Shown here: in pieces, positions 1,491-16,576 of the stretch
Layout: each line of letters starts with the position of its first letter
How positions within the stretch are numbered: the first letter of the stretch is position 1
Assembly (NCBI GenBank): GCA_965248355.1
Contig: OZ252098.1
Location: forward strand, 4,736,001-4,800,000
Source of the DNA: Candidatus Latescibacterota bacterium
GTDB lineage: Bacteria > Latescibacterota > UBA2968 > UBA8231
Length of the DNA stretch: 64,000 bases
Direction of reading: 5' to 3'
The notes under the pieces: generated by a model
The model's database searches: none
The model's input: the letters and a program-made list of their open reading frames with translations, nothing else
Told to the model about the DNA's origin: nothing
Made by a program: the position numbers and the translations under genes

Positions 1491-2630
1491 TCACCCCTGC
1501 CGGTAGACGCGCCCGTCCTTCACCACCACCACGGGCTCGAGGTTCCGCGAGCCCGTGCGCGCCAGGCCGCGCGCGTCCTCCAGGTGGAAGCGCCCCTCCT
1601 GCAGCTCCGTCACCACGGCGTCGCCCACGGCGCCGGGAGCCAGCGTGCCGAGATCGTTGCGCCGCAGCACCGAGGCCGCCGGCACGCTGGTCACCATGGC
1701 GATGACGTCGTCGAGGGACAGGCCCAGGTGCAGGAACTTGGTCATCACGTTGGCCAGGTCGTACACGGGCCCGTGGAGGTTGTAGACGTGCAGGTCGGAG
1801 GAGATGGTGTGGGGCCGCACGCCCTGCTCCATGGCCGCCTCCACCACCGGCCAGGAGAAGGAGCCGGAGCCGTGGCCCACATCGAGGAGGACGCCGCGCT
1901 CGATCGCCTCGCGCACCGAGGGCCGCACGCGGCCGCCGTCGTCGAGGATGCCGCAGGTCGAGTTGTGGAAGCAGTGCGTGAGGATGTCGTCCTTCTTCAT
2001 CACTTCCAGGATGTCGTCGAGGGTTTCGCACCAGGCGGCCTGGGGGTGGATCATGATCGGCAGGCCCACGGCGTCGGCCGCCTCGCGGGCCCGGTGCAGG
2101 GGCTCCAGGCCGGCCGCCTCGCCGACGATGGTGTTCCTCGTGAGCCGCGCCTTGACGCCGATGAGCAGGTCGCGGTTGGCCTCGATCATGCGGCGGCAGG
2201 CCTCGACGTCGGCCAGGTCAAGGAGGGAGAGCTCGCCCACCTTCCCGGTGATCATGCCCTGGGAGGAGATGTTCAGCTCCGCCAGGATGCGGGTCTGCGC
2301 CACCTCGATGACGTACTTGCGGAAGCCGGGGAAGATGTCGGCCCCCGCCGAGCCGGCGTCGACCACGGTGGTGGCGCCGCGGGCCAGGCAGGTCGGGTCG
2401 GGCTCGATGCCGTAGTGGGTGACGTTGGGGAAGACGTGGACGTGCACGTCGATCCACCCCGGCGTCACGTAGCGGCCGGCGGCGTCGATGACCACGCGCG
2501 CCTCGCCGGCGGGCAGGTCCGGCCCCACCTCGGCCACCACGCCGCCGGCGAAGGCCACGTCCCTGCGGTCGTGGATCCCCTGGGCGGGGTCGACGAGGGT
2601 GCCGTTCTCGATGAGCAGGTCGTACTTCAT
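1491..2630 (-). CDS. Amidohydrolase/deacetylase family metallohydrolase (dihydroorotase-like)
   Basis: MKYDLLIENGTLVDP start with GAGAGG RBS; IDVHVH metal motif, VVDAGSAG, LTHCF, DVGHGSGSF, ISSDLH. Confidence 0.85.
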   Translation of the reverse strand: MKYDLLIENGTLVDPAQGIHDRRDVAFAGGVVAEVGPDLPAGEARVVIDAAGRYVTPGWIDVHVHVFPNVTHYGIEPDPTCLARGATTVVDAGSAGADIFPGFRKYVIEVAQTRILAELNISSQGMITGKVGELSLLDLADVEACRRMIEANRDLLIGVKARLTRNTIVGEAAGLEPLHRAREAADAVGLPIMIHPQAAWCETLDDILEVMKKDDILTHCFHNSTCGILDDGGRVRPSVREAIERGVLLDVGHGSGSFSWPVVEAAMEQGVRPHTISSDLHVYNLHGPVYDLANVMTKFLHLGLSLDDVIAMVTSVPAASVLRRNDLGTLAPGAVGDAVVTELQEGRFHLEDARGLARTGSRNLEPVVVVKDGRVYRQG

Positions 2631-2711
2631 GTCGGGAGATCCTCTCGCGGGTGGCGTGGGTGGACGTAGAATTAGCGGCCCCGCCATGATCCGTCAAAGG
2701 AGGAGGTCTCC

Positions 2712-4586
2712 GTGAGCCTCGCCATCCACGCGACCCGCCGCTGCGAGCCGCCGGCCTGGGCGCGGCTGCAGCGCCGGCTCCTCGCCACCATGTCCGAGGC
2801 CGCCCGGGAGGCCTCGGCCCGCTACAGCTTCCCCGACGGCACCGCCACTTTCGTCGAAGACGTGGATGACGCGTACGAGGCCCGCGCCGGCCGCGGCGCC
2901 CTCTACGCCCTCGGCGGGGACGACGACCTGCGCCGCATCGCCCGCCGCGAGTGGGAGGCCACCACCCGCCTCTTCGATGACTCCGGCCCCGGTTGCGACC
3001 ACCCGAAGTACGTCGCCCAGCTCACGGACGAGTACTACAACCTCGCCACCCCCTTCGAGTGGTTCCACCAGGGCGAGGGCAACCAGTCCTTCTACGAGCT
3101 GGCTCTGGCCGAGCCGGACTCGGCCGCCCTTCGCGAGAGGGCCGCCCGCTTCGCCGACCTCACCATCGACGAGCGCAACTACGACGCCGCTCACCGCGTC
3201 TTCCGCTCGCCCTTCCCGTCGAGCGCCGGCCCCCTGACGAGGGCCCGGGACCGCGGCGAGGCCGCCGGCGTCCACTTCGCCCGGGCCCACCTCACCTCCC
3301 GCTACCGCAGCGACCCGGGCAGCCCCGCCCTGCGCGCCTCCCTCCACCCCTTCGTGCGGGACCTGGAGGAGGACTGGCCCGCCGACCCGGAGCGCCGCCG
3401 CGAGATCCTCGACCTCTTCGACCGCGTCGTCCTGGGCGGCGACGTGCCCACGAACCTGACCGCCGCCGGCCTGGTCACCCACGCCTTCCTGTCTACCGGG
3501 GAGGACCGCTACCGCCGGTGGGTCCTCGACTACGCCCAGGCCTGGATCGAGCGCATCGACGCCAACGGCGGCCTGGTGCCCGACAACGTCGGCCCCACGG
3601 GGCGCGTCGGCGAGCAGCGCCGCGGCCAGTGGTGGGGCGGCCTCTACGGCTGGTCGAGCCGGTGGGCCGGAGACATGAACTTCGGAGGCCTCACCGTGGC
3701 CGCCGAGTGCGCCCTGCTGCTGTCCGGAGACGCCGGCTACCTGGAGCTGCTGCGCCGGCCCCTGCTGGCCCTCCTCGAGCGGGCCCGCACCACGGCCGAG
3801 GGCCGGCTGGAGATTCCCAAGCGCATGGGGCCGGAAGGCTGGACCGAGTGGGCGCCGCCGAGGCTGCTGCAGTTCGCGCACCTGTATCACGCCTCCATGA
3901 GCGCCGCCGACCGCGCCCTGATCGTGCGTCTGCGCGAGGGCGACCCCGGCGGCGACTGGAACCACGTGGAGAGCCTCTCCGACCGCCGCAGCCAGCAGGC
4001 CGAGCACGCCCGCTTCCAGTACTACGACGGCCCCAACCCCGACTGGCCCGAAGCGATCCTGGGCGCCGACCTGGCCTGGTGCGAGAGCCACCTCGAGAGG
4101 ATCCAAGCCGAGGACCGCGATCCCGAGACCCTCCTGCGGGAGAACGGGTGGCCGCCGAACCCGGTCGTCACCAAGGGGCTGACCCAGGTGACCACCGGGG
4201 CCCCGCAGACCGTCTACAACGGCGGCCTTCTGCGCGCCACGGTGCGTCACTTCGACCTGGATGGCCGCCGGCCGGGACTGCCGCCGGAGGTGGCCTGTCT
4301 CGTGGAGGGACTGTCCGCGGAGTCGGTGGACCTGCGGCTGGTGAACACGGGGCGGGACCGGCGCCGGGTGCTGGTGCAGGCCGGCGCCTTCGGCGAGCAC
4401 GAGTTCACCGCCGTGGAGGCCGAGGGGGAGAGCCGGCAGGTCGGGGGCCGCCACTTGGCGGTTGAGCTGGCGCCGGAGGCCGGAATCCTGCTGCGCGCCG
4501 GCCTGCGCCGCTTCGTGCGCACGCCTTCCTACGGGGCCGCCCTCGATCTGCTGAAGGCGGGACCCGCGACTCCACGATCCGGTTGA
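2712..4586 (+). CDS. Hypothetical 624-aa protein, possibly an (alpha/alpha) toroid enzyme
   Basis: GGAGGAGG RBS before GTG, high-GC3 codon usage, W/H/E-rich motifs (EWFHQGEG, VPDNVG..G, WWGGLYGW); no signal peptide. Confidence 0.8.
   Translation: MSLAIHATRRCEPPAWARLQRRLLATMSEAAREASARYSFPDGTATFVEDVDDAYEARAGRGALYALGGDDDLRRIARREWEATTRLFDDSGPGCDHPKYVAQLTDEYYNLATPFEWFHQGEGNQSFYELALAEPDSAALRERAARFADLTIDERNYDAAHRVFRSPFPSSAGPLTRARDRGEAAGVHFARAHLTSRYRSDPGSPALRASLHPFVRDLEEDWPADPERRREILDLFDRVVLGGDVPTNLTAAGLVTHAFLSTGEDRYRRWVLDYAQAWIERIDANGGLVPDNVGPTGRVGEQRRGQWWGGLYGWSSRWAGDMNFGGLTVAAECALLLSGDAGYLELLRRPLLALLERARTTAEGRLEIPKRMGPEGWTEWAPPRLLQFAHLYHASMSAADRALIVRLREGDPGGDWNHVESLSDRRSQQAEHARFQYYDGPNPDWPEAILGADLAWCESHLERIQAEDRDPETLLRENGWPPNPVVTKGLTQVTTGAPQTVYNGGLLRATVRHFDLDGRRPGLPPEVACLVEGLSAESVDLRLVNTGRDRRRVLVQAGAFGEHEFTAVEAEGESRQVGGRHLAVELAPEAGILLRAGLRRFVRTPSYGAALDLLKAGPATPRSG
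4533..4567 (+). repeat. Diverged direct repeat 1a (3' end of the 624-aa gene), partner at 15121-15157
   Basis: ggggccgccctcgatctgctgaaggcgggaccc vs ggcgccgccctcgaccggctgaaggcggacccc, 28/33 identical by hand count. Confidence 0.55.
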
Positions 4587-4618
4587 TCCCCGCGAACCCG
4601 GCGGCTACCCTAAGCGGC

Positions 4619-4983
4619 ATGGACTGGCTCCCTACATCCTCATTGGCACCGGCGTGGTGGTGTCCTTCGCCGGAGTGATGCGCTGGATGCTGCGAGACGT
4701 GCGCGCCGACTTGGGCGGAGGCATGGACCGGCCGGAGATCCACATCGACCGCGCGGAAGCCCGTATGGGCCGGCGGGAGACCCGCGTGGACCGGTTGGAG
4801 ACCCGCCTCGACGGGCGCATGGACCGGCTGGAAACCCGTATCGATGACCTGGCCGCCGACCTCCGCACGGTTTCAGAACGGCTGGCTCGTGTCGAAGGCG
4901 CCGTCTGCGGCCCCTGGCCCGGCCGGACACCGCCGCCGCGGCCCCTTCGCAGCCAGCCTTCCCGACGAACAATTCCCGCTTGA
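4619..4983 (+). pseudogene. Small membrane-anchored coiled-coil protein, probably frameshifted/decaying
   Basis: ATG 4619 is one base out of frame with PYILIGTGVVVSFAGVMRW (TM-like); heptads MDRPEIH/IDRAEAR/MGRRETR/VDRLETR/MDRLETR. Confidence 0.5.
4723..4839 (+). repeat. 21-bp tandem repeat (about 5 units) encoding xDRLETR heptads
   Basis: atggaccggccggagatccac, atcgaccgcgcggaagcccgt, atgggccggcgggagacccgc, gtggaccggttggagacccgc, (12-bp spacer) atggaccggctggaaacccgt. Confidence 0.8.
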
Positions 4984-5050
4984 CCCTTGCCAGGCGCGGT
5001 CGATGACCGTGCTGGACCCCCACTAACAGTAGTTCTGGGATGAGCCATCC

Positions 5051-6865
5051 TTGGTGAGACCTGTGCGCCTCTTCCTGATCCTCGCCCTGTGCTCGGCACT
5101 GGCGGCCCCCGAGGCGTGGGCCCAGGCCGCGCAGCCGCCGAAGCACGAGTTCCGGGGGGCGTGGATCGCCACCGTCTTCAACCTGGACTGGCCGAGGGCG
5201 GCGACGCCCGCCGAGCAGCAGGCCGAGCTGCTCCTGATGCTGGACCGCCTCAAGGAGGCCGGCATCAACGCCGTCTTCATCCAGGTCCGCTCGGCCTGCG
5301 ACGCCCTGTACGACTCGCCGCTGGAGCCGTGGTCCTACTGGCTCACGGGGCGGCAGGGCGCCGCGCCCGATCCGTGGTACGACCCGCTGGCCTTCGCCGT
5401 GCGGGAGGCCCACCGGCGGGGCATGGAGCTCCACGCGTGGTTCAACCCCTACCGGGCCCAGGCGAGCTCCGCGTACGAGGCGTCCGCGGACCACGTGACG
5501 CGGACCCACCCGGAGTGGCTCCTGGAGTTCGGCGATCTGCGCGTGCTGGATCCGGGCCGGGCCGCCGTGCGGAACTACGTCACCCGCGTCATCATGGATG
5601 TTGCGCGCCGCTACGACATCGACGGGGTGCACTTCGACGACTACTTCTATCCCTATCCTCCGAACCAGATCAGCACGGAGGACGCGGCCACCTTCGCGGA
5701 AGAGAGCCGGGGATTCGCCAGTCTCCCCGAGTGGCGCCGCGACAATGTCAACATCTTCATCGCCCAAGTCGCCGACAGCCTTCGCGCGCGGAAGCCGGCC
5801 CTGAAGTTCGGCGTCAGCCCCTTCGGTATCTGGAAGAACGGCGTGCCGGAGGGCATTCAGGGCCTGGACTCGTACGATGTCATCTTCGCGGACCCCACGG
5901 CCTGGCTTGCGGCGGGGACCGTGGACTACCTCGTGCCGCAGCTCTACTGGCCCTTCGGCGGCCCCCAGGACTACGACAAGCTGGCCTCCTGGTGGGCGGA
6001 GCAGGTCCGCGGCCGGCATCTCTACACGGGGCACGCTCTCTACCGGGCGGACAGCGAGACCCATCCCGGGACGCTCTTCTCCCCGGAGGAGATTCCCGGC
6101 CAGGTCCGGTTCAACCGCGACTCCCCGGACATTCAGGGGAGCGTGTTCTTTCGAGCCAGGAACATCACGCACCATTCCTCCCAGGGTTTCGCCGAGGTGC
6201 TGAAGACGGACCTGTACCGGCATCCCGCCCTTGCGCCGCCCATGGCCTGGAAAGCGTCGGAGCCTCCCGCCGCTCCCGGCGGACTGAAGTTGGCGTCGAT
6301 CGGGGACCGGGAGGTGGAACTGTCGTGGCATCCCGTCCAGGGGGCCCGCCGCTATGCGGTCTACCGCGTCCGGTCGCGCACGAGGCCCGAGCCTGGCCCG
6401 GCGGCCCTCGACGCGCGCAACCTGCTTGCCGTCACCGGGGAGACCGCGCTGGCGGACAGCCCCGAGGGGTCGGAGACGTCCCACTATTTCGTGCAGGCCG
6501 TCGGCGACAATTCGAGCGAGAGCGGACCGAGCGCCCTGGTCAGCTCCAGCGGCGCGGCGACGGATGTCACGATGGACGCGGCCGCCCCGCGGATGCGCCT
6601 CGCCGTCTATCCGAACCCGTTCAACACCACCACCCGGATCGCCCTCACCGTGGAGGAGACCGCTCCCGTGTCGCTGCGCATCTACAACCAGTTGGGGCAG
6701 AGGGTACGGACCCTGGTCGAGGGGGCGCGGCTCAGCCCCGGCGCGCACGCCTTCGAGTGGGATGCCGCGGATGACGCCGGCCGGCACCTCGCCAGCGGCG
6801 CCTACTACCTCGTGGTCGAAGTCGGGGACCGCCGCCTGGTCAGGCCCCTGGCGCTGGTGCGGTAG
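5051..6865 (+). CDS. Secreted glycoside hydrolase-like 10 (YddW/DUF187 type) with FN3-like and FlgD/T9SS-like C-terminal domain
   Basis: Signal peptide; EFRGAWIATVFNLDWP, HAWFNPYR, YDIDGVHFDDYFYPYP, PQLYW; C-term YPNPFN...LASGAYY...LALVR. Confidence 0.9.
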   Translation: MVRPVRLFLILALCSALAAPEAWAQAAQPPKHEFRGAWIATVFNLDWPRAATPAEQQAELLLMLDRLKEAGINAVFIQVRSACDALYDSPLEPWSYWLTGRQGAAPDPWYDPLAFAVREAHRRGMELHAWFNPYRAQASSAYEASADHVTRTHPEWLLEFGDLRVLDPGRAAVRNYVTRVIMDVARRYDIDGVHFDDYFYPYPPNQISTEDAATFAEESRGFASLPEWRRDNVNIFIAQVADSLRARKPALKFGVSPFGIWKNGVPEGIQGLDSYDVIFADPTAWLAAGTVDYLVPQLYWPFGGPQDYDKLASWWAEQVRGRHLYTGHALYRADSETHPGTLFSPEEIPGQVRFNRDSPDIQGSVFFRARNITHHSSQGFAEVLKTDLYRHPALAPPMAWKASEPPAAPGGLKLASIGDREVELSWHPVQGARRYAVYRVRSRTRPEPGPAALDARNLLAVTGETALADSPEGSETSHYFVQAVGDNSSESGPSALVSSSGAATDVTMDAAAPRMRLAVYPNPFNTTTRIALTVEETAPVSLRIYNQLGQRVRTLVEGARLSPGAHAFEWDAADDAGRHLASGAYYLVVEVGDRRLVRPLALVR

Positions 6866-6873
6866 GCCTGGCG

Positions 6874-6934
6874 CTACTCCACCGGCACGACCTGCGGGTT
6901 CACGCCGAGCCGCGCGTCCTGCAGGTCCATGCGG
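6874..6934 (-). repeat. Diverged copy of the last 19 codons + stop of the beta-helix gene (partner 9365-9425)
   Basis: 51/61 nt identical; RMDLQDARLGVNPQVVPVE* vs RMDLQNARIGVTLQAVPAE*. Confidence 0.9.
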
Positions 6935-6955
6935 CTGCGGCGGAACTTGCGGGCG

Positions 6956-9207
6956 TCAATCCTCAAGGCCTTCCCCTCCCGCCGTTCGCAACTGTTCGAG
7001 CCCCTGGATGGCCGAGGCATTGCCGGGGTTCTGGCGGAGGACCTCCTCGAAGGCAGCTTGCGCGGCGCGCCGACGGCCCAACCTGAGACAGAGGTGGGCG
7101 TATTCCAGTCTCGATTGCCAGTGCCGACATTCAGGGTAAACGCCTTCTCGAGGTGATCCGCAGCACGTGCTGCCTCCCCAAGGTCCCGGGCCAGCAGTCC
7201 TGCCGAGAAATACAGACTGACCAAGGGAGCGGTCCGCAATCTGGAAGCGACGTGGTTGATGAAGAGTTCGGCGGTCTTCAGGGCCAGTTCCGGCATTCCC
7301 AGGGCCAATAGCCGATTCAGCACTGCTTCCATGCAGGAGGGATGAGGATCCCCTCTCAGGGAGCTGGTCCAACCGTGTGCTTCCCCGAGCAGGAACTGCC
7401 CGACCAGGATATCGGGTTGGCGCCGGGTGAAGATGTCAAGGCGGGCCCTTGCCTCCTCGGTGCGTCCTGCCCGAAGGGCCTCCGCTCCCTCGACCAGTAG
7501 GCGTTCGTCCCCGCCGTTCTGGCGGCCTTCCCATTCGACCAGGGCCGCCTCGACCGCTTCCCTGTCGTTGCGGCGATAGATCGTCACGGTCGGATGATCG
7601 AACGCCGTCATCGTCGGTTCGTCGTACTGACGGGGGAGTCGAACCGGACCGACCCCGGGGCTGGTCCGGAAGCGGGAGGCAGGAGAGAATCCGAGATCCC
7701 TCGATTTCAGGCGAGCGTACAAGCCGTACCCGACCGGATAGGATCCGGCTGCGGCGAGGAACTGGCGCTGCCGGTTCTCCTCGACGAGAGCGATCCAGCC
7801 AACGTCCTCGAGCAGCCTTCTGGCGTATTGAATCTGGCCGAGCTGGGTGTCGCAGTCCTGGGTACGAATGAAATAGGCGGCCCTGACAGGTCGTTTCCTG
7901 CGCGGAGGAGAAACCATCCAGTCGGTGGGGAAGCCACCGACCTCGGTCAGCACACTCTCTCCGGCGGGGACGTTGGCCTCGATCCACCTCGCCGCCTCGA
8001 TTCGTGCGTCGGTCCTGTCGTAGATGTTCCAGGTGGTGAGCCCGATGGCAACCGTGGCCGATATCACAAGGGCTGGCAGGCCGTAGGCGACGGGACGGAA
8101 CGGCACCCGGCGCAAACAGAGGGTGCAGGCCCAGGCTGCCAGGACGACGAGGGGAGGCAACAGCGGCAGGACGTAGCGGACCGGCTTCAGGTGGTGTCCT
8201 CCTACCGCAACGAAGTAGACGACGATCCAGGAAAGCAGCACCAAAGCCGCCCGGTCTCGAAGGAGTACCGCGAGAAGACATCCGGCGACCGAGGCGGCGA
8301 AGAGTGGCAAACCCAGCGAGTAGGGGAGCAGATCGGTGAGGTGGAACAGGAACGGCGTCGTTCCCATGTCATACAACGACCACGGGAAGACCACCTCTCC
8401 GAGGGAGACCTTCAGGCTCTGCCTCCATGTGAGCAGCACGTCGTCGCCGAAGAACCGCCCCGGTTCCAGAACGGAGAAAGGCTCGCAGGCGATGGCCACG
8501 AGGAAGAGGGCTGCGAAGAAGAGGCAGGTGCGGACCGACACGAGGGCCCGAAGGACGCGGCCGGGGCCCCGGTACCAATCGGCGGGCAGGTGCTGAACGA
8601 GGAAGGGGGCCACGAGGAGCACGCCGACGAGGCGGGTGCCGACGGCTGCCCCCACCAGGGCGCCGCACGCCGCGTACGTCCCTGCGCCGGCTTGCGGCAT
8701 GCGCTGAATCAGGTACAGGCATAGCACCGAGAACGCGGCAAGCAACGGATCGACCGTGTAGTAGTGCGCCTGCTGGACGTGCCCGAAGCAGAACGCCAGC
8801 AGCACTGCGGATAGCGCAGCCGTAAGCCCTCCCCCGAGCGTGCGGGCCATCAGAAAGAGGACCCAGATGCTGGCGACCGACATCACCGCCGTGATCGCCC
8901 GGGCCAGGATGTGGGCGTCCCGGAGTCCGCTGTTGTCGTCCGGGGCGAGGGAGACACCGGTCAGGCTGGAAACACCCCACAGGAGGTAGGCGGGGAAGAA
9001 CCCGTACGGCATCTGAACCTGCCGCAGGTCGGTGCCGACCCAGCGGCTGTTCCGGACTATCGTGCTCTCATCCGGATGGAATGCTTGGAACCGGCCGGTC
9101 TCTGGATCCGTACCCCAGTCGATGCCGTTCAGACGAAGAATCGATCCGCAAAGAAGGGCGGCGAACAAGACCCCGACGGCGCGGGAGTTCATGGACGGGG
9201 GAAGCAT
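6956..9207 (-). CDS. ArnT/PMT-type (GT39/GT83-like) membrane glycosyltransferase with C-terminal TPR region; apparent 1-bp frameshift near 7128
   Basis: FHPDE motif, multiple TM helices, AHYYTVD, RYVLPLLP. The second frame 6956..7372 carries the TPR-like HWQSRLEYAHLCLRLGRRRAAQAAFEEVLRQNPGNASAIQGL; as read, the ORF runs on to 6874. Confidence 0.8.
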
Positions 9208-9248
9208 TCTCGTTGTCCGAGTCGATCTCGCAAGGCAGCCTCAGTGGC

Positions 9249-9344
9249 GCCGATGCCGTCTGCATCGCCGGGGGGGCCAGGTGCCGCCCGCGACCGAGGT
9301 CGAAAGTGGGACCGGGCCCACCGCCGCGCCAGTCCGCCGACCTT
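9249..9344. repeat. Intergenic repeat copy A (contains GATGCCGTCTGCATC at 9252-9266); partner 12922-13009
   Basis: gccgatgccgtctgcatc...ggtgccgcccgcg...cgaa.gtgg.accggg.cc...gcgccagtccgcc..cctt shared with copy C. Confidence 0.9.
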
Positions 9345-9364
9345 CGCACAGTGTCGGATCGCCC

Positions 9365-10702
9365 TTACTCCGCAGGCACCGCCTGCAGGGTAACGCCGAT
9401 CCGCGCGTTCTGCAGGTCCATGCGGGCGCCGTGGGGGTTGCGCACCCGGATCGAGCCGGTCACGTCGAAGAGCCCCTTGGCCGGCTCCTTCTGGAGCGCC
9501 GACAGAAAGGGGCGGTCGCGGCCGTCGACGATCTCGCAGTCGACGAAGTCGATGCCGCCGTGGGTCGGCGTGATCAGCTCGGGACGCTTGTTGTAGATCA
9601 GCAGCGGCGCCGGGGTGTCGACGCTGTCGACGCGGGCGAAGGCGTTGCCCAGCGCCGTGCCCACGTCGATCCAGCGTGTCCGGGTGAAGCGCACGCGGGC
9701 GCGCTCCGGATGCTTGTCGTAGACGAGGGCGCCGACGCCGGCCACGTCCTCGACGACGCAGTCGCGGAACTCGATCAACCCCCCGGGGCCCTCCGCCTTC
9801 AAGGCGCCGAAGACGAGGCCGGAGCCCAAGCGGCTCGTGACCCGGCAGCGGTCGAAGAGGATCGACACCTCCTCCGCGTCGGGCTCGTTGAAGCGCAGGT
9901 AGACCTGGATGCCGGCGCCGTAGTTGTCCCGGAAGAGGCAGTTGCGGAAGACGATCTGCTGCGCCTTCTGGCCTGGATGGTCGGGCTCGATGTCGACGCC
10001 CGCCGACGGCGGCGTCCCCCACGTGTTCGAGAACTCGCTGTCTTCCACCGTGAGGCCGACGACGCTGATGACGCTGATCCCCTGCCGGTAGTGGTTGTCG
10101 CAGACCACGTCGCGGATGGTGATGTCGCGGCTGTACTCGCGGCCGCCGCCGCCGTCGACGTAGATCCCGTCGCCGCCGCTGTCCCGGATCGTCAGGCCGT
10201 CGATGAGGGCCTTGTGGACCCCGCGCAGGGACAGGGTCATGCGCCACTCCGCCTTGGGGTAGACCTCCCGCTTGGTGTAGTCCATGTAGTCCTGCTTGTG
10301 CATCCGGATCGTGGCGCCGTACCCGCGGACCGTCACGTCATCGACGCCGCTGGCCTGGAAGAGGCAGTCGCCTTTGCCGCGGAACGCCCCGCGCCGGGCG
10401 CTGACCACGACTCCGCGCTCCAGGAACAGCTCCTGGTGCCCCGCCAGCCGGATCGGCCCGACGATCCAGTCGGAGCCCATGTTCGGCACGACCACCCTCC
10501 GGGAGCCGGAGTCGATGGCGGCCTGCAGCGCCGCGGTGGCGTCCTCGGCGTCGAACCCCCACCAGGCGGCGTTCGCCGTCGAGCGCCGGCCCTCGGCGAC
10601 CTCGCGCACCGCCTCCGGGCTGGGCGTGTTGCCGGGAATCGTCAGGTCCGCCGCGGCCGGCGAGGCCAGCAGCGGCGAGCAGCCGAGGGGGATCTTGGAC
10701 AT
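9365..10702 (-). CDS. Right-handed parallel beta-helix (pectin lyase-like fold) protein
   Basis: DATAALQAAIDSG N-cap, IRDSGGDGIYV, DNHYRQGISVISV, GVDIEPD; AGGAG RBS. Confidence 0.85.
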   Translation of the reverse strand: MSKIPLGCSPLLASPAAADLTIPGNTPSPEAVREVAEGRRSTANAAWWGFDAEDATAALQAAIDSGSRRVVVPNMGSDWIVGPIRLAGHQELFLERGVVVSARRGAFRGKGDCLFQASGVDDVTVRGYGATIRMHKQDYMDYTKREVYPKAEWRMTLSLRGVHKALIDGLTIRDSGGDGIYVDGGGGREYSRDITIRDVVCDNHYRQGISVISVVGLTVEDSEFSNTWGTPPSAGVDIEPDHPGQKAQQIVFRNCLFRDNYGAGIQVYLRFNEPDAEEVSILFDRCRVTSRLGSGLVFGALKAEGPGGLIEFRDCVVEDVAGVGALVYDKHPERARVRFTRTRWIDVGTALGNAFARVDSVDTPAPLLIYNKRPELITPTHGGIDFVDCEIVDGRDRPFLSALQKEPAKGLFDVTGSIRVRNPHGARMDLQNARIGVTLQAVPAE

Positions 10703-10728
10703 GGTCGGGTCTCCTGGAGGCTGTCCGG

Positions 10729-10756
10729 CGAAGGGGCGGGGGATGCCGTCTGCATC
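10729..10756. repeat. Intergenic repeat copy B (cgaaggggcgg..GATGCCGTCTGCATC); partner 12912-12939
   Basis: cgaaggggcgggggatgccgtctgcatc vs cgaaggggcggccgatgccgtctgcatc (26/28). Confidence 0.9.
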
Positions 10757-10923
10757 GGGCGGCCGGACTCGGCCCGTGAGGGGGGTTACTCGTCTTGCTC
10801 TACCCGCTGGCGGTATCTGTGCACCAGATGCTGAAGCCAGGCTTCCCGGGGGTAGTCGTCAGCAAGGGACAATGTTGCCTGAATCATCACCGGGCTGTGA
10901 CCCAGACTCTCGGTCACAGTAGA

Positions 10924-12471
10924 CCCTCTGGTTGCATAAGAACAGGGCTTTTTCCTCCTCCGAACGGCCCATTGTCACTTGCGGCGCCCTCTGAAAAAGG
11001 GGTATTTGATACTGTCGACCAAGACATGTATCGACCCCTTTCAGAAGGACACCGCAAGTGAGGTTCAGAAAAGAAGACATTTTGGCCCGTTTTCACAAGC
11101 TCCCGCATCTTCGCTTCGAGGATCAACAGCTGACTTCCTTTGCGGGAGCCATCGTTTTTCAACTGCTCTTCCGGCGCCTGGATCTGAAGACTCGGCTGAA
11201 GTCGTGCTTCCCCGCCAAGAGCTCCGCGATCTTTGGTCCCCATCTCATGGTGTTGTTGCTCATCGTGCATCTGCTGCTGGGCTTCCGGCGGCTGCGAGAC
11301 ATGGACTATTACCGGGACGATCCGGTGGTGCTGCGTCTGTTGGGCTTGCGCCGCCTGCCGGACGTGGCCACCCTCAGTCGCGCCCTCGCAAGAATGGGCC
11401 GTTCGAGTATCGAAAAAGTGCGCCACCTGTCTTCGGTCCTGGTGGTGCAGGCGCTCCAGCGCGAGCGGTTCCCCCGTCTGACCCTCGACTTCGACGGCTC
11501 GGTGATCTCCACTTGTGGTCATGCCGAAGGGACCGCCGTGGGCTATAATCCGAAAAAGAAAGGGGCGCGCAGCTATTACAACCTGTTCTGTACGGTGGCG
11601 CAGACCGGACAGTTCTTCGATGTCCTTCACCGCCCCGGCAACGTCCATGACAGCAAGGACGCCCATGCGTTCATGATGGACGCCTTCGATCGGGTGCGCG
11701 ACGCGCTGGCGCCTACCGTGCTCGAGTCCCGACTCGACAGTGCCTTCTTCAGCCAGGACACGCTCACGCTCCTGGACCTGTATGGCGTCGAATGCACGAT
11801 CAGTGTCCCTTTCGAACGCTTCCCCGTACTCAAGGACCAGATCGAAGCGCGCCAGCGCTGGCGCTTTCTCGATGAACACTGCGCCTATTTCGAGAGTGAC
11901 TGGAAACCCAAACGCTGGCCCGCCTCGTACCGATTTCTCTTGGTCCGCCGTGCGGTCGCGCGTCAGACCAAGGAACCGCTGCAACTGGATCTGTTCGAAC
12001 CCCGGCCCATCGATCATGAGTACCGCGTTCTGGTGACCAACAAGAGGATCTCGGCCCGCCGCGTGCTCCTCTTCCACTATGGCCGCGGCGCCCAGGAAGG
12101 GATCTTCGCCGAGGCCAAGCAACAGGCCGGGCTGGATCTGATCCCCACCCGGCGGCTGCTCGGCAACCAGATGGTGACTTTGTGTGCGATGATGGCCCAC
12201 AATCTGGGACGCGAAATGCAGATGCGGGCGCAGGCGCGATCCAACTATTCGCGCGCCAAACGCCCGGCGGCGTGGACCTTCCAGACCTTGGACACTCTGC
12301 GTCATCGCTTCATTCAGCGCGCCGGGCGCCTCACTCGGCCCAAGGGCGAGTTGACCCTGACCCTGAACTCCAATCCAAAAGTGGAAAAAGATCTGTTGCA
12401 TTTCCTCGAAACACTGAAGGATGCCGCCTGATCACACCACCGCCTTCAAACAGATTTATGCAACGTTAGGG
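10924..12471 (+). mobile_element. IS1380-family insertion sequence, 1548 bp
   Basis: Terminal IRs CCCTCTGGTTGCATAA (10924-10939) / TTATGCAACGTTAGGG (12456-12471), 13/16 match; 4-bp target duplication TAGA (10920-10923, 12472-12475); lower GC than flanks. Confidence 0.95.
11058..12431 (+). CDS. IS1380-family DDE transposase
   Basis: LTSFAG, TLDFDGS, GYNPKKKG.RSY, RPGNVHDS, RLDSAF, YGRG.QE...E.K, AHNL, LRHRFIQRAGRL. Confidence 0.92.
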   Translation: MRFRKEDILARFHKLPHLRFEDQQLTSFAGAIVFQLLFRRLDLKTRLKSCFPAKSSAIFGPHLMVLLLIVHLLLGFRRLRDMDYYRDDPVVLRLLGLRRLPDVATLSRALARMGRSSIEKVRHLSSVLVVQALQRERFPRLTLDFDGSVISTCGHAEGTAVGYNPKKKGARSYYNLFCTVAQTGQFFDVLHRPGNVHDSKDAHAFMMDAFDRVRDALAPTVLESRLDSAFFSQDTLTLLDLYGVECTISVPFERFPVLKDQIEARQRWRFLDEHCAYFESDWKPKRWPASYRFLLVRRAVARQTKEPLQLDLFEPRPIDHEYRVLVTNKRISARRVLLFHYGRGAQEGIFAEAKQQAGLDLIPTRRLLGNQMVTLCAMMAHNLGREMQMRAQARSNYSRAKRPAAWTFQTLDTLRHRFIQRAGRLTRPKGELTLTLNSNPKVEKDLLHFLETLKDAA

Positions 12472-12823
12472 TAGATGCGGACAAACCCGCCTTAATGAGT
12501 TCAGTAAAGAAGGCCTCAATCGGCGATCGCATCGGTCCACAATCTGAGGTACAATGGGCCCAAAGCTCGGCCAGCATTTCCGCCGCTTCAGTCTTTTCCG
12601 GTCGAGGATTCCATAGAGCTGTGAAGGCCTCTAATAGTGATTCGGAGCGGATCAAAGAGAATGCAATGGTCTCTTCGGGAAGCCCCAGTCCTGTCAGCTT
12701 CCTCATGTTCCGCAGAAGGGGAGTAAGGCGGTAGGTCTCTTTCCAGATGTGCAGCTTGCCAGGGCCGGGCATGGGATGCGCCTCCTCTAAGCCTTATTCG
12801 CGGAGAACCGGGCGCCCTCAGAA

Positions 12824-12841
12824 CTCAGGGGCACCCCTGAG
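12824..12841. promoter_or_regulatory. Perfect 8-bp inverted repeat upstream of the 144-aa gene (candidate operator)
   Basis: CTCAGGGG-ca-CCCCTGAG, about 50 bp upstream of ATG 12772. Confidence 0.35.
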
Positions 12842-12864
12842 CCCAAGGTAGAAAAAATCGGGCG

Positions 12865-12912
12865 GGCGATGCCGGGACGAAGGCCCGGCCACCCGGGCCC
12901 AGCTCAACCACC
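12865..12912 (+). repeat. Non-coding copy of a segment of the last NHL repeat (partner 14981-15029)
   Basis: ggcgatgccggg-acgaaggcccggccacccgggcccagctcaaccacc vs ggtgatgccggggacggcggcccggccacccgggcccggctcaaccacc (44/49). Confidence 0.92.
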
Positions 12913-13009
12913 GAAGGGGCGGCCGATGCCGTCTGCATCTCCCGGGGCCGGGTGCCGCCCGCGCCCGAAGGTGGCACCGGGTCCGCGGGCGCGCCAGTCC
13001 GCCTCCCTT
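12912..13009. repeat. Intergenic repeat copy C: left part shared with B, right part shared with A
   Basis: Core GATGCCGTCTGCATC at 12925-12939; direct alignment with copies A and B. Confidence 0.9.
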
Positions 13010-13087
13010 GCCGGAGGCGGCCGGCGGAGTGAGCTTTCGCCGACCCGTCATGCCGTCCAGCCTCTCCTCCCTCCCGTCCCGCCGCCC

Positions 13088-15115
13088 GTGAGCCTGTCCC
13101 GGCTGCTCGCCGGGCTGGCGCCCGGCCACATCACCACCATCGCCGGCGTCGGCTACCTCGACGGCGTGCCGGCCCGGGAGGCCCCCGCCGGCACGCCCCA
13201 GGGAGTGGTGCGCACCGCCGCCGGGGACCTGATCGTGCTGGACATGTGGGGTCACCGTATCTGGCGCATCGACACCGATGGGGTGCTGCATCTCTTCGGC
13301 GGCGACGGCGTACCCGGGGGGAGAGGCGACGGCGGCCCGGTGGCCGGGGCCCGCTTCCACGATCCCCACGATCTGGCCCGCGACCGGCACGGCCACCTCT
13401 ACCTGACCGACCTGGGCAACCACGCGGTGCGGCGCATCGACATCGACACCGGGATCATCACCCGGGTCGCCGGCTCGGGCCGCGTCGGCTGGGGCGGCAA
13501 CGGCGGCCCGGCCCTGGAGTGCGAGATCGACAACGACTCCGGCATCGCCGTCGACGACGACGGCAACGTCTACCTCTCCTGCGAGTGGTCGAACGTGGTC
13601 CGCCGCATCGATGCCCGCACCGGCGTCATCGAGCACTTCGCCGGCCTCGAGGCCCGGCATCACGGCCTCGAGCGCGGCGCCAGCCGGCCCTTCTCGGGCC
13701 CGTGGCTCAGCCTCGGGGGCTACTCGGGCGACGGCGGCCCGAAGGAGCGGGCCGGCTTCCACCACCCCGAGCATCTCGCCTTCGACTCGAAGGGCGACCT
13801 GTACGTGTGCGACAACTCGAACGACCGCATCCGCAGGATCGACATGACCACGGGCCTGGTCAGCACCGTTCTCGGCAACGGCATGCGGGCTTCCAGCGGC
13901 GACGGCGAGCTCGGCCCGGAGGCGGCCGTGTTGATGCCGGACGCCCTGTTCTTCGACGTCCATGACAACATGTACGTGGGCGAGAAGTACGGTTTCCGCG
14001 TGCGCCGGGTGGACGCGAAGACGGGGCGCGTCTCCACGGTGGCCGGCAACGGCCGGCCGGGGTGGGGCGACGAGGGGCTGCCGGGTCCCGAGAGCCGCAT
14101 CAACTCGGTGGAGGCCGGTCTGTGGGCCGACCCCGACGGCACCGTGTTCTGGGGGGACTCCTCGGGCCGCCTGCGCCGGTGCGACGGCCCCACCGGCATC
14201 GTCACCACGGCCCTGGGGGGCACCTCGATCCACGACGGCGGACCCGCCGCGGCGGCCTTCCTGCGGGGGCCTTGCGGCCTCTCCGTGGCCGGGAACGGCG
14301 ACATCTACGTCGCCGACATGTGGAACCAGCGGGTGCGCGCCATCGATGCCGCCACCGGCGTCATCCGCACCGTCGCCGGCGAGGGCGCGCGCGCCTACGG
14401 GGGAGACGGCGGGCCGGCGGCGGAAGCCTTCCTCGGCAACCCGGCCGACGTCTCCGCCGGACCCGGCGGAGACGTCCTCATCGCCGACACCCGCCACAGC
14501 CACGTGCGCCGCGTGGACGGCTCGGGCGTGATCCACAACTTCGCCGGGGCCGGCTTTCCCTGGGACCTCGGCGACGGCGGGTCGTCTATCAACGCCTGCC
14601 TCATCTCGCCCGCCGCGGTCGAGCACGGCCCGCGGGGCGACGTCTACATCGCCGACGCCGGCGCCCACCGGATCCGCAAGGTCGACGCCGAGACCGGGAT
14701 CATCACCCCCGTCGCCGGCAACGGTCTCGACGGCTGCACCGGGGACGGCGGTCCGGCCCGCCAGGCCCGCATCGGGCGGCCCGAGTCCCTGCGCTTCGAC
14801 GGCGCCGGCAACCTGTTCTTCGTGGACAGCGCCTCCTGCGTCGTGCGCCGCGTCGATGTCGCCTCGGGCCGGATAGAAACCGTCCTCGGCTGCGGCGCCG
14901 AGGGCTTCTCCGCCGACGGCACGCCGGCGCGGGAGGCCCGCCTCGGCAGCCCCCGGGGGCTGGAAGTCACCGCCGACGGGGGTGATGCCGGGGACGGCGG
15001 CCCGGCCACCCGGGCCCGGCTCAACCACCCCTGCGGCCTGCGCCTCTACGGGGACGGCCTGCTGCTCATCAGCGACCACTGGAACAACAAGCTGCGCGCC
15101 GTCCGCCTCGGGTAG
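13088..15115 (+). CDS. NHL-repeat beta-propeller protein
   Basis: Repeated GDGGPA..A....P.g...d..G.lYiAD..n.rIRrID..TG.I.tvAG.G units; start chosen at GTG 13088 (uncertain). Confidence 0.9.
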   Translation: MSLSRLLAGLAPGHITTIAGVGYLDGVPAREAPAGTPQGVVRTAAGDLIVLDMWGHRIWRIDTDGVLHLFGGDGVPGGRGDGGPVAGARFHDPHDLARDRHGHLYLTDLGNHAVRRIDIDTGIITRVAGSGRVGWGGNGGPALECEIDNDSGIAVDDDGNVYLSCEWSNVVRRIDARTGVIEHFAGLEARHHGLERGASRPFSGPWLSLGGYSGDGGPKERAGFHHPEHLAFDSKGDLYVCDNSNDRIRRIDMTTGLVSTVLGNGMRASSGDGELGPEAAVLMPDALFFDVHDNMYVGEKYGFRVRRVDAKTGRVSTVAGNGRPGWGDEGLPGPESRINSVEAGLWADPDGTVFWGDSSGRLRRCDGPTGIVTTALGGTSIHDGGPAAAAFLRGPCGLSVAGNGDIYVADMWNQRVRAIDAATGVIRTVAGEGARAYGGDGGPAAEAFLGNPADVSAGPGGDVLIADTRHSHVRRVDGSGVIHNFAGAGFPWDLGDGGSSINACLISPAAVEHGPRGDVYIADAGAHRIRKVDAETGIITPVAGNGLDGCTGDGGPARQARIGRPESLRFDGAGNLFFVDSASCVVRRVDVASGRIETVLGCGAEGFSADGTPAREARLGSPRGLEVTADGGDAGDGGPATRARLNHPCGLRLYGDGLLLISDHWNNKLRAVRLG

Positions 15116-15120
15116 GTCGA

Positions 15121-15157
15121 GGCGCCGCCCTCGACCGGCTGAAGGCGGACCCCCGCC
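15121..15157 (+). repeat. Diverged direct repeat 1b (copy of the 3' end of gene 2712-4586)
   Basis: Encodes GAALDRLKADP vs GAALDLLKAGP; fills most of the NHL-sulfatase intergenic gap. Confidence 0.55.
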
Positions 15158-15166
15158 TGACCCTCC

Positions 15167-16576
15167 TCAAGCCTCGTCCAGCGGATAGCGCTCGTCGCCC
15201 ACCGCCTCCTGCAGCCGGTGCAGCTCGTCCGTCAGCTCCCTCCGCACGGCCGCGTGGGCCTCGTCGTGGTAGAGGCTGCGCAGCTCGTTCCCGTCCGCCT
15301 GCAGGTCGAACAACTCCCACTCCGGCGGGTGCCGCTCGTCGCCGGTGCCGGCCTGGCCGCAGCCGTCGTTGTAGAAGTAGATCAGCTTGTGGCGGTGGGT
15401 GCGCACGCCGTAGTGGGCGTAGACGTTGTGGGCGCCGTCGCCGTGCATCCAGTAGCGGTAGTACATGGACCGCTGCCAGTCGGGGGGCGTCTCGCCGCGC
15501 AGCAGCGGCCGGAAGGAGCGGCCCTGGAACTCGTCGGGGATCGTCACCCCCGCCAGGTCGAGGAACAGCGGCGCGAAGTCGACGTTGAGGACGAACTCGT
15601 CACAGGTGGTGCCCGCCTTCACCTCCCGGGGCAGGCGCGCCACGAAGGGCATGCGCAGCGACTCCTCGTACATGAAGCGCTTGTCGAACCAGCCGTGGTC
15701 GCCGAGGAAGAACCCCTGGTCGGAGGTGTAGATGACGAGGGTGTCCTCGGTCAGCCCCTCCCGGTCGAGGTAGTCCAGCAACCGCCCCACGTTGTCGTCG
15801 ACGGCGGCCACCACCCGCAGGTAGTCCTTGATGTAGCGCTGGTAGCGCCAGCTCCTCTCCTCGCCCGGCGACAGGCGGGAGGGGACATCGGCCTTCAGGT
15901 CCTTCCACTGCAGATCCTCCATGCGCATGCGCGCCGCCGCCGCCGCGGCCGAGCGGTTCTGGTAGTCGTCGTCGAAGGTCTCCGGCTCGGGGATCTCCTC
16001 GTTTTCGTACAGGCCCGCGTGCACGGCGTCCGGCTCCCACTCGCGGTGCGGCGCCTTGTGGTGCACCATGAGGGCGAAGGGCCGGGTGCGGTCCCGGTTC
16101 CGGAGCCATTGCAGGGACATGTCCGTGATCAGGTCGGTCACGTAGCCCACGTGCACGCGCCGGCCCGCAGGATCGATCATCACCGGGCTGTGGTAGAGGC
16201 CCTGCCCCGGCAGCACGCGCCAGTCGTCGAACCCCGCCGGCTCGTGGTCCGGCCCCTGCCCGAGGTGCCACTTGCCGAAGATCGCCGTCTGGTAGCCCGC
16301 CTCCCGCAGCAGCTTCGGGTAGGTCGTCAGGCGGTTGTCCATGTGCGTCGACAGGGTGGTGACGCCGTTGACGTGGTTGTAGGTGCCGGTGAGGATCGCG
16401 GCCCGGCTGGGCGTGCAGATGCCGTTGGTGCAGAAGCAGTTGTCGAAGCGCATGCCCTCGTCGGCGATGCGGTCGAGGTTGGGCGTGCGGTTGATGCGAC
16501 TCCCGTAGCAGCTCATGGCGTGGGAGGCGTGGTCGTCGGACATGACGAAGAGGATGTTGGGGCGGTCGCCGGGCAT
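15167..16576 (-). CDS. Formylglycine-dependent sulfatase (S1 family)
   Basis: RPNILFVMSDDH, CTPSRAAILTG (CxPxR), GKWHLG, YTSDQGFFLGDHGWFDKRFMYEESLRMP; no signal peptide. Confidence 0.95.
   Translation of the reverse strand: MPGDRPNILFVMSDDHASHAMSCYGSRINRTPNLDRIADEGMRFDNCFCTNGICTPSRAAILTGTYNHVNGVTTLSTHMDNRLTTYPKLLREAGYQTAIFGKWHLGQGPDHEPAGFDDWRVLPGQGLYHSPVMIDPAGRRVHVGYVTDLITDMSLQWLRNRDRTRPFALMVHHKAPHREWEPDAVHAGLYENEEIPEPETFDDDYQNRSAAAAAARMRMEDLQWKDLKADVPSRLSPGEERSWRYQRYIKDYLRVVAAVDDNVGRLLDYLDREGLTEDTLVIYTSDQGFFLGDHGWFDKRFMYEESLRMPFVARLPREVKAGTTCDEFVLNVDFAPLFLDLAGVTIPDEFQGRSFRPLLRGETPPDWQRSMYYRYWMHGDGAHNVYAHYGVRTHRHKLIYFYNDGCGQAGTGDERHPPEWELFDLQADGNELRSLYHDEAHAAVRRELTDELHRLQEAVGDERYPLDEA

Follow-up and report, generated by a model that had tools for sequence, protein, structure and literature searches.

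The closest described signature to the arrangement reported here is insertion with long target duplication, of which Nobusato 2000 is said to be the founding paper. We examined a 64,000-nucleotide (nt) stretch, hereafter the window, of a Candidatus Latescibacterota genome (assembly GCA_965248355.1, contig OZ252098.1, forward-strand positions 4,736,001 to 4,800,000), in which an ArnT-like glycosyltransferase gene and a gene for a 144-residue protein (newcomers 1 and 2) have each been added beside a resident gene unit, with short, diverged copies of both ends of that unit around them. Long target duplication was reported for restriction-modification genes, whose DNA breakage was taken to account for it, the mechanism being left open in the available part of the paper (Furuta, Abe & Kobayashi 2010, PMC2853133). 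Among proposed mechanisms, homology-facilitated illegitimate recombination comes nearest; it was put forward for 'sequential displacement' arrays of type VI secretion system (T6SS) effector-immunity and Rhs loci and, in the portion of the text available, is hypothetical there too (Kirchberger 2017, PMC5361080). The earlier note on this DNA knew no named system of this kind; long target duplication and illegitimate-recombination join points were already in print, as the accessible parts of these two papers attest. Phrase searches of open-access text found no description of the double-flank form as such.

Compared with long target duplication, as far as the available part of PMC2853133 describes it, the inserts are alike in being absent from a related genome (the ArnT-like and the 144-residue inserts both qualify) and in lacking a mobility gene; their direct repeats are long and variable, unique in the genome and present as one copy in the empty genome, and a gene fusion is found at a joint. 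The locus differs in its cargoes, which here are a glycosyltransferase, a small unknown gene, a RidA-like gene and low-G+C DNA, and in carrying at the joint a second relic, from the resident's far side. The target copy of the 144-residue event is 28 nt long, below the published 30-nt threshold, whereas the ArnT repeats lie above it (77 nt in G000, the genome under study, and ~126 nt counting the end of the GHL10 gene in contig C235 of the sister genome G004). The T6SS/Rhs arrays, in the accessible text of PMC5361080, share with our locus the integrase-free addition of modules in a swap-prone locus, here presumably also through one homologous anchor and one illegitimate joint, as well as shifted remnants of the previous occupant's end, and a comparison with integrons was made and rejected there likewise; however, the effector is displaced in those arrays and the immunity gene alone survives, whereas here the whole resident is kept and both of its ends are copied. 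We put at about an even chance the reading that a swap-prone slot received alternative occupants in tandem, one end being joined by homology and the other illegitimately.

G000 is a metagenome-assembled single contig of 5.5 Mb with 69% G+C and 4.2% contamination; the window begins at ~4.74 Mb, and coordinates are window positions unless prefixed G000. It was compared with four sister genomes (G002, G004, G006 and G007), which together with it form a subclade, with three distant congeners that were fetched (G001, G003 and G009), and with the contigs of sequencing runs. These contigs were the only read evidence: runs X23 and X1 come from other studies, X19 is possibly the source sample, and positions at which runs X1, X2 and X23 give no coverage were counted neither way. 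For the most part the runs containing the sequence were sponge or marine metagenomes. Because of the 69% G+C content, spurious long open reading frames (ORFs) are open in every frame, and real genes were therefore chosen by third-position G+C and Pfam matches. In all three distant congeners the amidohydrolase and sulfatase orthologues are adjacent, and tblastn found no island proteins in those stretches; the block between these two conserved genes is thus an accessory island that has grown in the subclade of G000 and its sisters.

Self-comparison of positions 4000-16500 by blastn recovered five pairs of diverged direct repeats, covering all four interleaving sets that the earlier note had reported (Table 1). 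Here L and R denote the flanks of the first resident unit and L' and R' their relics beside newcomer 1; U28 and U28' are the two copies of the duplicated target of newcomer 2, b' is a relic of piece b of the resident NHL gene, and o1 and o2 form the last pair. The layout is interleaved, and the arrangement said to occur twice, a newcomer in tandem with a resident and bracketed by copies of both resident ends, was borne out. None of 60 mononucleotide shuffles per query reached the observed ungapped score (23-45 observed, null maxima 15-19). A harsher control, the same k-mer and extension scan run at an offset of 100-112 kb, gave ~0.3 chance matches scoring at least 23 per 12.5-kb region, so that the two shortest pairs are weak on score alone. 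The local partner was nevertheless the best genome-wide match for all nine repeat segments tested: best local and next genomic matches scored 72.5 versus at most 41 bits for the 77-nt pair, 67.7 versus 39.4, 58.3 versus at most 38, 39.4 versus 26.9 and 37.9 versus 33.1 bits for the others. The 28-nt pair coincides exactly with the borders of an insertion that the four sister genomes are without. The joints of the duplicated stretches lie at arbitrary points, namely inside the GHL10 coding end (contig C235 of G004), inside the NHL gene and, at a further locus described below (locus b), at the fusion point of a chimeric ORF. The remaining repeats, at 13.1-15.1 kb, are internal to the NHL propeller gene.

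Newcomer 1 is found in G007 and on contig C235 of G004 at 85-87% identity. It is missing from G002, G006 and contig C309 of G004, where the GHL10 gene runs directly into the beta-helix gene via a single L; G004 carries both alleles, with and without the ArnT-like gene, on separate contigs. A genome of a different genus, G047, is 81% identical at the nucleotide level over exactly 6982-9211 in an unrelated context, and its copy is the only other close ArnT relative among 61 genomes of the family. On contig C235, L' is partly deleted, R' has an internal deletion, and between R' and L there is an additional, diverged copy of the final ~38 nt of the GHL10 gene with the intergenic spacer. These ~38 nt belonged to the duplicated unit, and we conclude that the ancestral duplicated stretch extended from inside the GHL10 gene to ~130-165 nt upstream of the beta-helix start. 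In G007, L' is almost wholly and R' entirely lost, the ArnT start codon lies ~22 nt from the beta-helix stop, and the ArnT ORF is intact. The independent loss and trimming of L' and R' in G007 and G004 suggests that the flank copies are decaying relics and not functional sites. In G000 itself a 1-nt frameshift near 7125 replaces the last ~55 residues of the ArnT-like protein, and the ORF reads into L' up to the relic stop codon. A different C-terminal stretch of ~55 residues is common to the G004, G007 and G047 orthologues; G000 departs from it after '...EKAF.LN', and the contigs of runs X23 and X1 have an extra base at 7125/7127 and no frameshift; L' is thus translated in G000 only because of a strain-specific frameshift. 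The ArnT-like gene may be degenerating in G000. Pfam revealed no mobility gene in the insert.

Newcomer 2 entered the divergent intergenic region between the beta-helix and NHL genes. In G000 a 2183-nt unit of U28, cargo and b' precedes U28' and the NHL gene, whereas U28 is single-copy in all four sister genomes, the beta-helix and NHL flanks overlapping on it; U28'/R aligns at 87-92% to the single intergenic region of these genomes. The insertion is likewise absent from the contigs of runs X23 and X1, in which 10692 is joined to 13106 with 228 letters between, a length that fits an undisrupted intergenic region. The 144-residue insertion is therefore polymorphic among close strains, and empty-site alleles, which the earlier note had proposed to look for in relatives, exist in sister genomes for both newcomers. 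The joint between b' and U28' (12911/12912) shows 1 nt of possible microhomology. The 144-codon frame is continuous once an insertion sequence (IS) of the IS1380 type and one copy of its target-site duplication are removed in silico. This element has imperfect 16-nt terminal inverted repeats and a 4-bp target-site duplication, TAGA, at 10920-10923 and 12472-12475. The IS has its own target duplication inside the 144-codon ORF and represents a later event nested within that gene. The genome holds eight copies at 99.7-100% identity, one interrupted by ~1.5 kb, and the IS contig has ~8-fold the depth of its flanks; the element is recently active. A cargo mobilized as an IS or composite transposon would be bounded by ISs or terminal inverted repeats and a short target duplication; neither IS copies nor inverted-repeat ends were found at the cargo borders, the single IS lying inside the 144-codon ORF only.

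The 144-residue protein itself has few relatives. An intact homologue, P0002, is present in a public metagenome at 87% identity, and a search of 5.8 billion proteins returned two relatives only, neither of them named. Comparison with Pfam and PHROGs (E values up to 10) gave nothing usable, with one PHROG match at E 0.16, and the top score of an Atlas search was 0.83, below a meaningful level. A single-sequence AlphaFold model reached a predicted local distance difference test (pLDDT) value of 48. Two metagenome scans yielded no true relative of the gene; a match in L035 (30% identity) lies in overlapping frames and looks spurious. A first impression that the C-terminus resembles a tyrosine-recombinase motif was supported by no search and was dropped.

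The layout is not unique to the window. The whole-genome count of the motif that the earlier note had proposed was run as a scan for two short, interleaved direct-repeat pairs with abutting inner copies, requiring an exact 11-mer and a score of at least 24 on both flanks, a requirement because of which old events are missed. A strict 'isolated repeat' filter excluded the target locus itself, and a tblastx test for unrelated interiors was noisy in this G+C-rich genome. The scan flagged 20 loci including the target, and two of the 19 others (loci a and b) show the pattern, with fresher flanks. Eight of the 19 were inspected; besides the two clean loci they comprised a thrice-repeated intergenic element of ~200 nt, a locus inside a 2039-residue ORF, two tandem paralogue arrays, a leucine-rich repeat gene and one weak case. 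The remaining 11 were judged, by tblastx only (best E at most 1e-20, at least 17 matches), to be paralogue or repeat arrays. The ~200-nt element occurs three times within 9 kb (G000 3917206-3917377, 3920838-3921054 and 3926026-3926228) at 77-84% identity, and its inner part is partly palindromic.

The four events in G000, those of the ArnT-like gene, the 144-residue gene and loci a and b, share the form T-cargo-N' followed by T-resident-N, where T is the duplicated target stretch and N' the stranded copy of the resident unit's far side. At locus a, three sister genomes have the order P-X-Q with single flanks, and G000 gains 688 nt with a RidA-like gene. The added DNA is flanked by a duplicate of the gene Q end (55 nt, 98%), and at its inner end stands a copy (60 nt, 100%) of the gene P end, which lies 2.8 kb away. 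A third, 16-nt copy of the end of the left gene P, plus 22 nt, is best read as the donor's own slot junction carried with the cargo. The RidA-like gene lies elsewhere in the sister genomes; at that ancestral place (G000 3815944-3818296) G000 keeps a ~70-nt remnant beside 2.3 kb of other DNA. This is a substitution allele, and it shows that such alleles arise in the lineage. At locus b the two copies join in a chimeric 118-residue ORF, the end of the left gene was copied independently in G002, and the slot holds different cargo in G002, G006 and G007. The joints of three events abut, their gaps ranging from -1 to 1 nt. The novel joints show 0-1 nt of microhomology; its extent is uncertain at the B1-to-A2 joints of events a and b, next to which there are near-misses of 3-4 nt and 5-9 nt.

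Recombination enzymes are not found near these events. Among the 39 window proteins scanned there is no recombinase but the transposase of the nested IS, and Pfam and PHROG scans detected no integrase or remnant in any cargo. The statement in the earlier note that the block has no integrase thus stands, as neither an integrase nor an attC-like site was seen, with the amendment that the block does hold a transposase, that of the IS inside the 144-residue gene. The genome encodes three tyrosine recombinases, one serine recombinase and two reverse transcriptases, each separated from the closest of the four events by ~95 kb or more (the Phage_integrase matches are at 0.32, 1.06 and 2.24 Mb, versus 4.74 Mb for the window); of the enzymes for which the earlier note had proposed a genome scan, none lies near an event. 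The two reverse-transcriptase genes are 10 kb apart (G000 4181606-4182298 and 4191595-4192287; RVT_1 E 4e-39 and 2e-37). Ku and ComEC are also present, and the presence of these proteins, the recombinases and the reverse transcriptases does not decide the mechanism.

Table 1. Features of the accessory island, its repeat pairs and related loci elsewhere in G000.
Feature	Position	Strand	Remarks
Amidohydrolase gene	1491-2687	-	left border of island
Accessory island	2688-15166		between amidohydrolase gene and sulfatase gene
Resident gene, no Pfam family	2712-4586	+	third-position G+C 0.94; 3' coding end contains o1 (4533-4565)
Variable 497-bp segment	4569-5065	+	coiled-coil-like ORF 4654-4983 of 21/33-nt repeats
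Resident GHL10 glycosyl-hydrolase-like gene	5051-6865	+	Pfam GHL10 2e-66, FlgD_ig 3e-11; FlgD_ig/secretion tail
L', relic of beta-helix last 25 codons and stop	6875-6951	-	79% to 9366-9442
Newcomer 1, ArnT/PMT-like glycosyltransferase cargo	6982-9211	-	ORF 6874-9207; Pfam PMT_2, PMT
R', relic of beta-helix upstream region	9249-9344		79% to 12922-13009; 42 nt upstream of ArnT start
Resident 1, right-handed beta-helix gene	9365-10702	-	Pfam Beta_helix 2e-12; 3' end 9366-9442 is L
U28, left copy of duplicated target of newcomer 2	10729-10756		26/28 to 12912-12939
Newcomer 2, low-G+C cargo	10757-12863	-	144-residue ORF (12772 to 12476, then 10923 to 10789), split by IS
IS1380-type element	10924-12471	+	transposase 11058-12431, Pfam DDE_Tnp_1_4 1e-36; ~1548 bp
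b', relic of internal 3' NHL piece	12864-12912		90% to 14980-15029; 49 nt, out of frame, non-coding
U28' and R, resident intergenic copy between divergent beta-helix and NHL genes	12912-13009		U28' 12912-12939, R 12922-13009
Resident 2, NHL-repeat beta-propeller gene	13088-15115	+	Pfam NHL, TEN_NHL; contains b (14980-15029)
o2, orphan 33-nt ectopic copy of 3' end of gene 2712-4586	15121-15153		inside strain-specific 58-nt replacement
Sulfatase gene	15167-16576	-	right border of island
Pair L'/L	6875-6951 / 9366-9442		77 nt, 79%, E 2e-14 (blastn)
Pair R'/R	9249-9344 / 12922-13009		96 columns including gaps, 79%, E 6e-13 (blastn)
Pair b'/b	12864-12912 / 14980-15029		50 nt, 90%, E 4e-10 (blastn)
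Pair U28/U28'	10729-10756 / 12912-12939		28 nt, 93% (26/28) (blastn)
Pair o1/o2	4533-4565 / 15121-15153		33 nt, 85% (28/33) (blastn)
Other IS copies	G000 59923, 2654031, 3175675, 3494839/3496489, 3979601, 4827608, 5153360
Locus a (event a)	G000 4287538-4291023		RidA-like gene added between three-gene operon and CBS-domain gene
Locus b (event b)	G000 2056246-2059617		170-nt copy of left gene end meets 379-nt copy of right gene start

Such an arrangement could arise in a single step. The incoming DNA would be a different slot occupant, still attached to short stretches of the slot's own flanks and derived from a related strain. One of its sides would recombine by homology with the flanking gene, which serves as an anchor, and its far end would be attached by an illegitimate join (0-1 nt of microhomology) at a position within the homology on the anchor side. 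The resulting arrangement would have the shared form of the four events: T is duplicated, N' is stranded at the joint, and the newcomer lies beside the resident instead of replacing it. This would amount to homology-facilitated illegitimate recombination that stacks two alleles, the stranded copies being functionless and free to decay. The ArnT-like gene would have come first, before the sister species split, the 144-residue gene recently, and the IS would then have landed in the latter. The donor alleles, the order of the strand events and the enzymes, which could be RecA together with Ku/LigD-type or replication-fork joining, are what we infer here. We favor allele stacking because it needs a single step per event, explains the third copy in event a, and fits the substitution alleles and the homologous exchange in the lineage. 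Such exchange is seen in the contigs of run X23, which have no differences from G000 over 6781-8775 and 46 over 8746-10692, all those listed falling at 9677-10405; the pattern marks a recombination breakpoint beside the insertion, and the beta-helix gene is a mosaic produced by homologous exchange between strains.

Several observations weigh against this reading. No single-occupant donor allele (GHL10-L-ArnT-R-NHL without the beta-helix gene, or U28-144aa-b without the 5' part of the NHL gene) was found in nine congeners and four runs. Duplication on the anchor side is not a standard product of homology-facilitated illegitimate recombination, which is described with deletions or displacement in the available part of PMC5361080. 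The contigs of X23 and X1 differ from G000 to the right of the insertion too, so that the divergent tract is not cleanly one-sided. ComEC is uninformative on the natural competence of this uncultured organism, as 10 of 14 control genomes also match. Finally, the NHL gene of G000 has a strain-specific, in-frame 93-nt deletion (~14972-14985) relative to all four sister genomes. Direct repeats of ~12 nt bound this deletion, whose end coincides exactly with the start of the copied piece b, and the model gives no account of the coincidence.

It is possible, though on the whole unlikely, that duplication came first: illegitimate recombination would have produced a tandem duplication of the resident unit, foreign DNA would have overwritten the inside of one copy, and deletion would have trimmed the rest. 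The units would have run from the GHL10 end through the beta-helix gene to its upstream region and, later, from U28 into the NHL gene up to 15029, overwriting being tolerated since the other copy kept function. The topology expected is identical to that seen, and no donor strain with a substitution allele is required. The joins of R' to g'-L (g' being the copy of the GHL10 end on contig C235 of G004) and of b' to U28', and the chimeric ORF of locus b, are classical duplication join points, end-to-start at arbitrary positions. Laboratory replacement of a needed gene yields merodiploids with cassette and gene, which resemble our locus in holding a cassette in one copy and the resident in the other without a site-specific recombinase; as given in the accessible part of that report, their duplications are at least 100 kb, formed between IS repeats by RecA, whereas the units here are 0.7-2.8 kb with non-homologous joints (Johnston 2013, PMC3784515). 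Against this route, two rare events would have to follow each other quickly within the same few kb, four times in one genome. Moreover, kilobase-scale tandem duplications are unstable. Overwriting would require either two more illegitimate joints or exchange via flanks of 28-170 nt despite much longer homology just outside. When the beta-helix and NHL proteins were compared with the newcomer units by tblastn, L' and b' alone were found, with no remnant of an overwritten interior, the interiors being unrelated genes; the flanks of event a are 100% and 98% identical, yet there is no trace of a second copy, and its third 16-nt copy is left unexplained. Both routes offered by the earlier note, tandem duplication with replacement of the interior and capture of an allele with flank homology, are left standing by this evidence. 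The independent decay of the copies agrees in spirit with a condition that the earlier note had named as refuting its idea, namely that the fragments be eroded remains of full-length paralogues lost by ordinary deletion.

We consider it improbable that a dedicated, hitherto undescribed gene-capture route, in which a trans-acting enzyme or a circular R'-L' intermediate integrates cargo and builds arrays without attC, is at work, even though the same architecture occurs four times in one genome, the same left-gene end was duplicated independently in G000 and G002 at locus b, and the joints of three events abut exactly. A dedicated cassette system is unlikely because the joints have no sequence motif in common, the flank copies vary in length between 28 and 379 nt and break off at arbitrary positions in coding sequence, and the relics decay; in addition, recombinases are missing from the vicinity of all events, the cargoes of different events are unrelated in type and orientation, and only 2 of the 19 other flagged loci show the pattern. 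Like an integron cassette array, the locus stacks unrelated single-gene units in tandem. Unlike one, it has no IntI or attI, its repeats are decaying, locus-unique copies of neighboring genes, and the orientation of the cargo is not uniform. No attC-type sites recurring across cassettes were detected, in that each repeat matches only its local partner genome-wide, a comparison made without an attC covariance model. The cassette-like arrays envisaged in the earlier note are therefore not supported: the flank copies are not sites, each being unique to its locus, joined arbitrarily within coding sequence and subject to decay.

There is very little to recommend the idea that the shared flanks are functional modules (a promoter or operator; a terminator or C-terminal peptide) that were copied and then maintained by selection to give the newcomer the same expression as the resident. 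R' does lie close upstream of the ArnT start, much as R precedes the beta-helix start by 37 nt, and R', U28 and U28' of G000 have a 15-nt near-palindrome in common; however, conservation of the near-palindrome does not extend to the sister genomes, the ArnT ORF of G007 is intact without L' and R', L' is read as protein through the frameshift specific to G000 only, and b' is an internal coding fragment lying out of frame in non-coding DNA. Scarcely more credible, indeed slightly less so, is an origin from site-specific integrative elements that target gene ends and supply a replacement end, as prophages do in icd and tRNA genes, with subsequent loss of the integrase. Gene 3'-end direct repeats flank the ArnT insert, and this class of repeat is recognized in the literature (Furuta 2010, PMC2853133, in its available part), but neither an integrase nor a remnant occurs in any cargo, the cargoes are single genes of 0.55-2.2 kb, and att recombination does not yield a second relic from the resident's far side (R', b', A2 and B1). 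That two strain haplotypes were concatenated in assembly, a misjoining which the earlier note had named as a possible refutation and which the contamination of this metagenome-assembled contig and the two ArnT alleles of G004 might suggest, has a negligible likelihood, as X19 contigs bridge 6500-10947 and 12445-13158 with 0 differences (though X19 may be the source sample and so not independent), contigs of X23 and X1 from other studies bridge L', the ArnT-like gene and the R'-to-L joint, the independent assemblies G007 and G004 show the ArnT arrangement, and flanks of 79-93% identity are too diverged to mislead an assembler.

The remaining genes of the island vary to different degrees within the subclade. 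The beta-helix gene is present in all four sister genomes at 90-91% amino acid identity, and the 3' end of the gene at 2712-4586 is conserved in all five subclade genomes. The start of the NHL gene was set by alignment with the sister genomes, which have ATG or GTG there; a longer ORF, 12869-15115, is a high-G+C artefact. The 497-bp segment is a presence/absence polymorphism, found in G000, G006 and contig C235 of G004 and missing from G007 and G002. Its coiled-coil-like ORF differs among G000, G006 and G004 in the number of 21/33-nt repeats, and in Pfam it had weak coiled-coil matches below the cut-off and nothing more. The copy o2 lies in a 58-nt replacement specific to G000 (15116-15173), which spans the NHL-to-sulfatase stops and alters the last two sulfatase codons; G007 and G006 have 13-16 other nt at this place and different last two codons. 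This copy looks like an orphan ectopic patch rather than a flank of the block as a whole. Short-patch double illegitimate recombination (bioRxiv 10.1101/2023.11.22.568220) fits such a 33-nt patch within a 58-nt microindel but leaves kb-sized cargo unexplained and, according to the available part of that preprint, has been shown experimentally in Acinetobacter only.

Overall, the short repeats look like decaying scars of sloppy recombination and not like the working sites of a new cassette system, and as a practical warning, such repeats are not to be mistaken for att or cassette sites. As a natural series for one way in which islands grow, the locus is unusually complete: across sister genomes and co-occurring strains the slot is seen empty, singly occupied, doubly occupied and eroded, and all joints can be read to the base. 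It indicates that the addition of a gene beside a resident can leave both resident ends copied without an integrase, and that these copies fade within the divergence time of sister species; it also offers a concrete, testable model for the long target duplication signature. Whether tandem allele stacking, by one homologous and one blunt illegitimate join, is a regular, recombinase-free way of gaining accessory genes across phyla with the resident kept is doubtful at present, its support being four events in one genome. If true, allele stacking would supply the missing explanation of long target duplication and would give rise to cassette-like arrays in slots prone to swapping.

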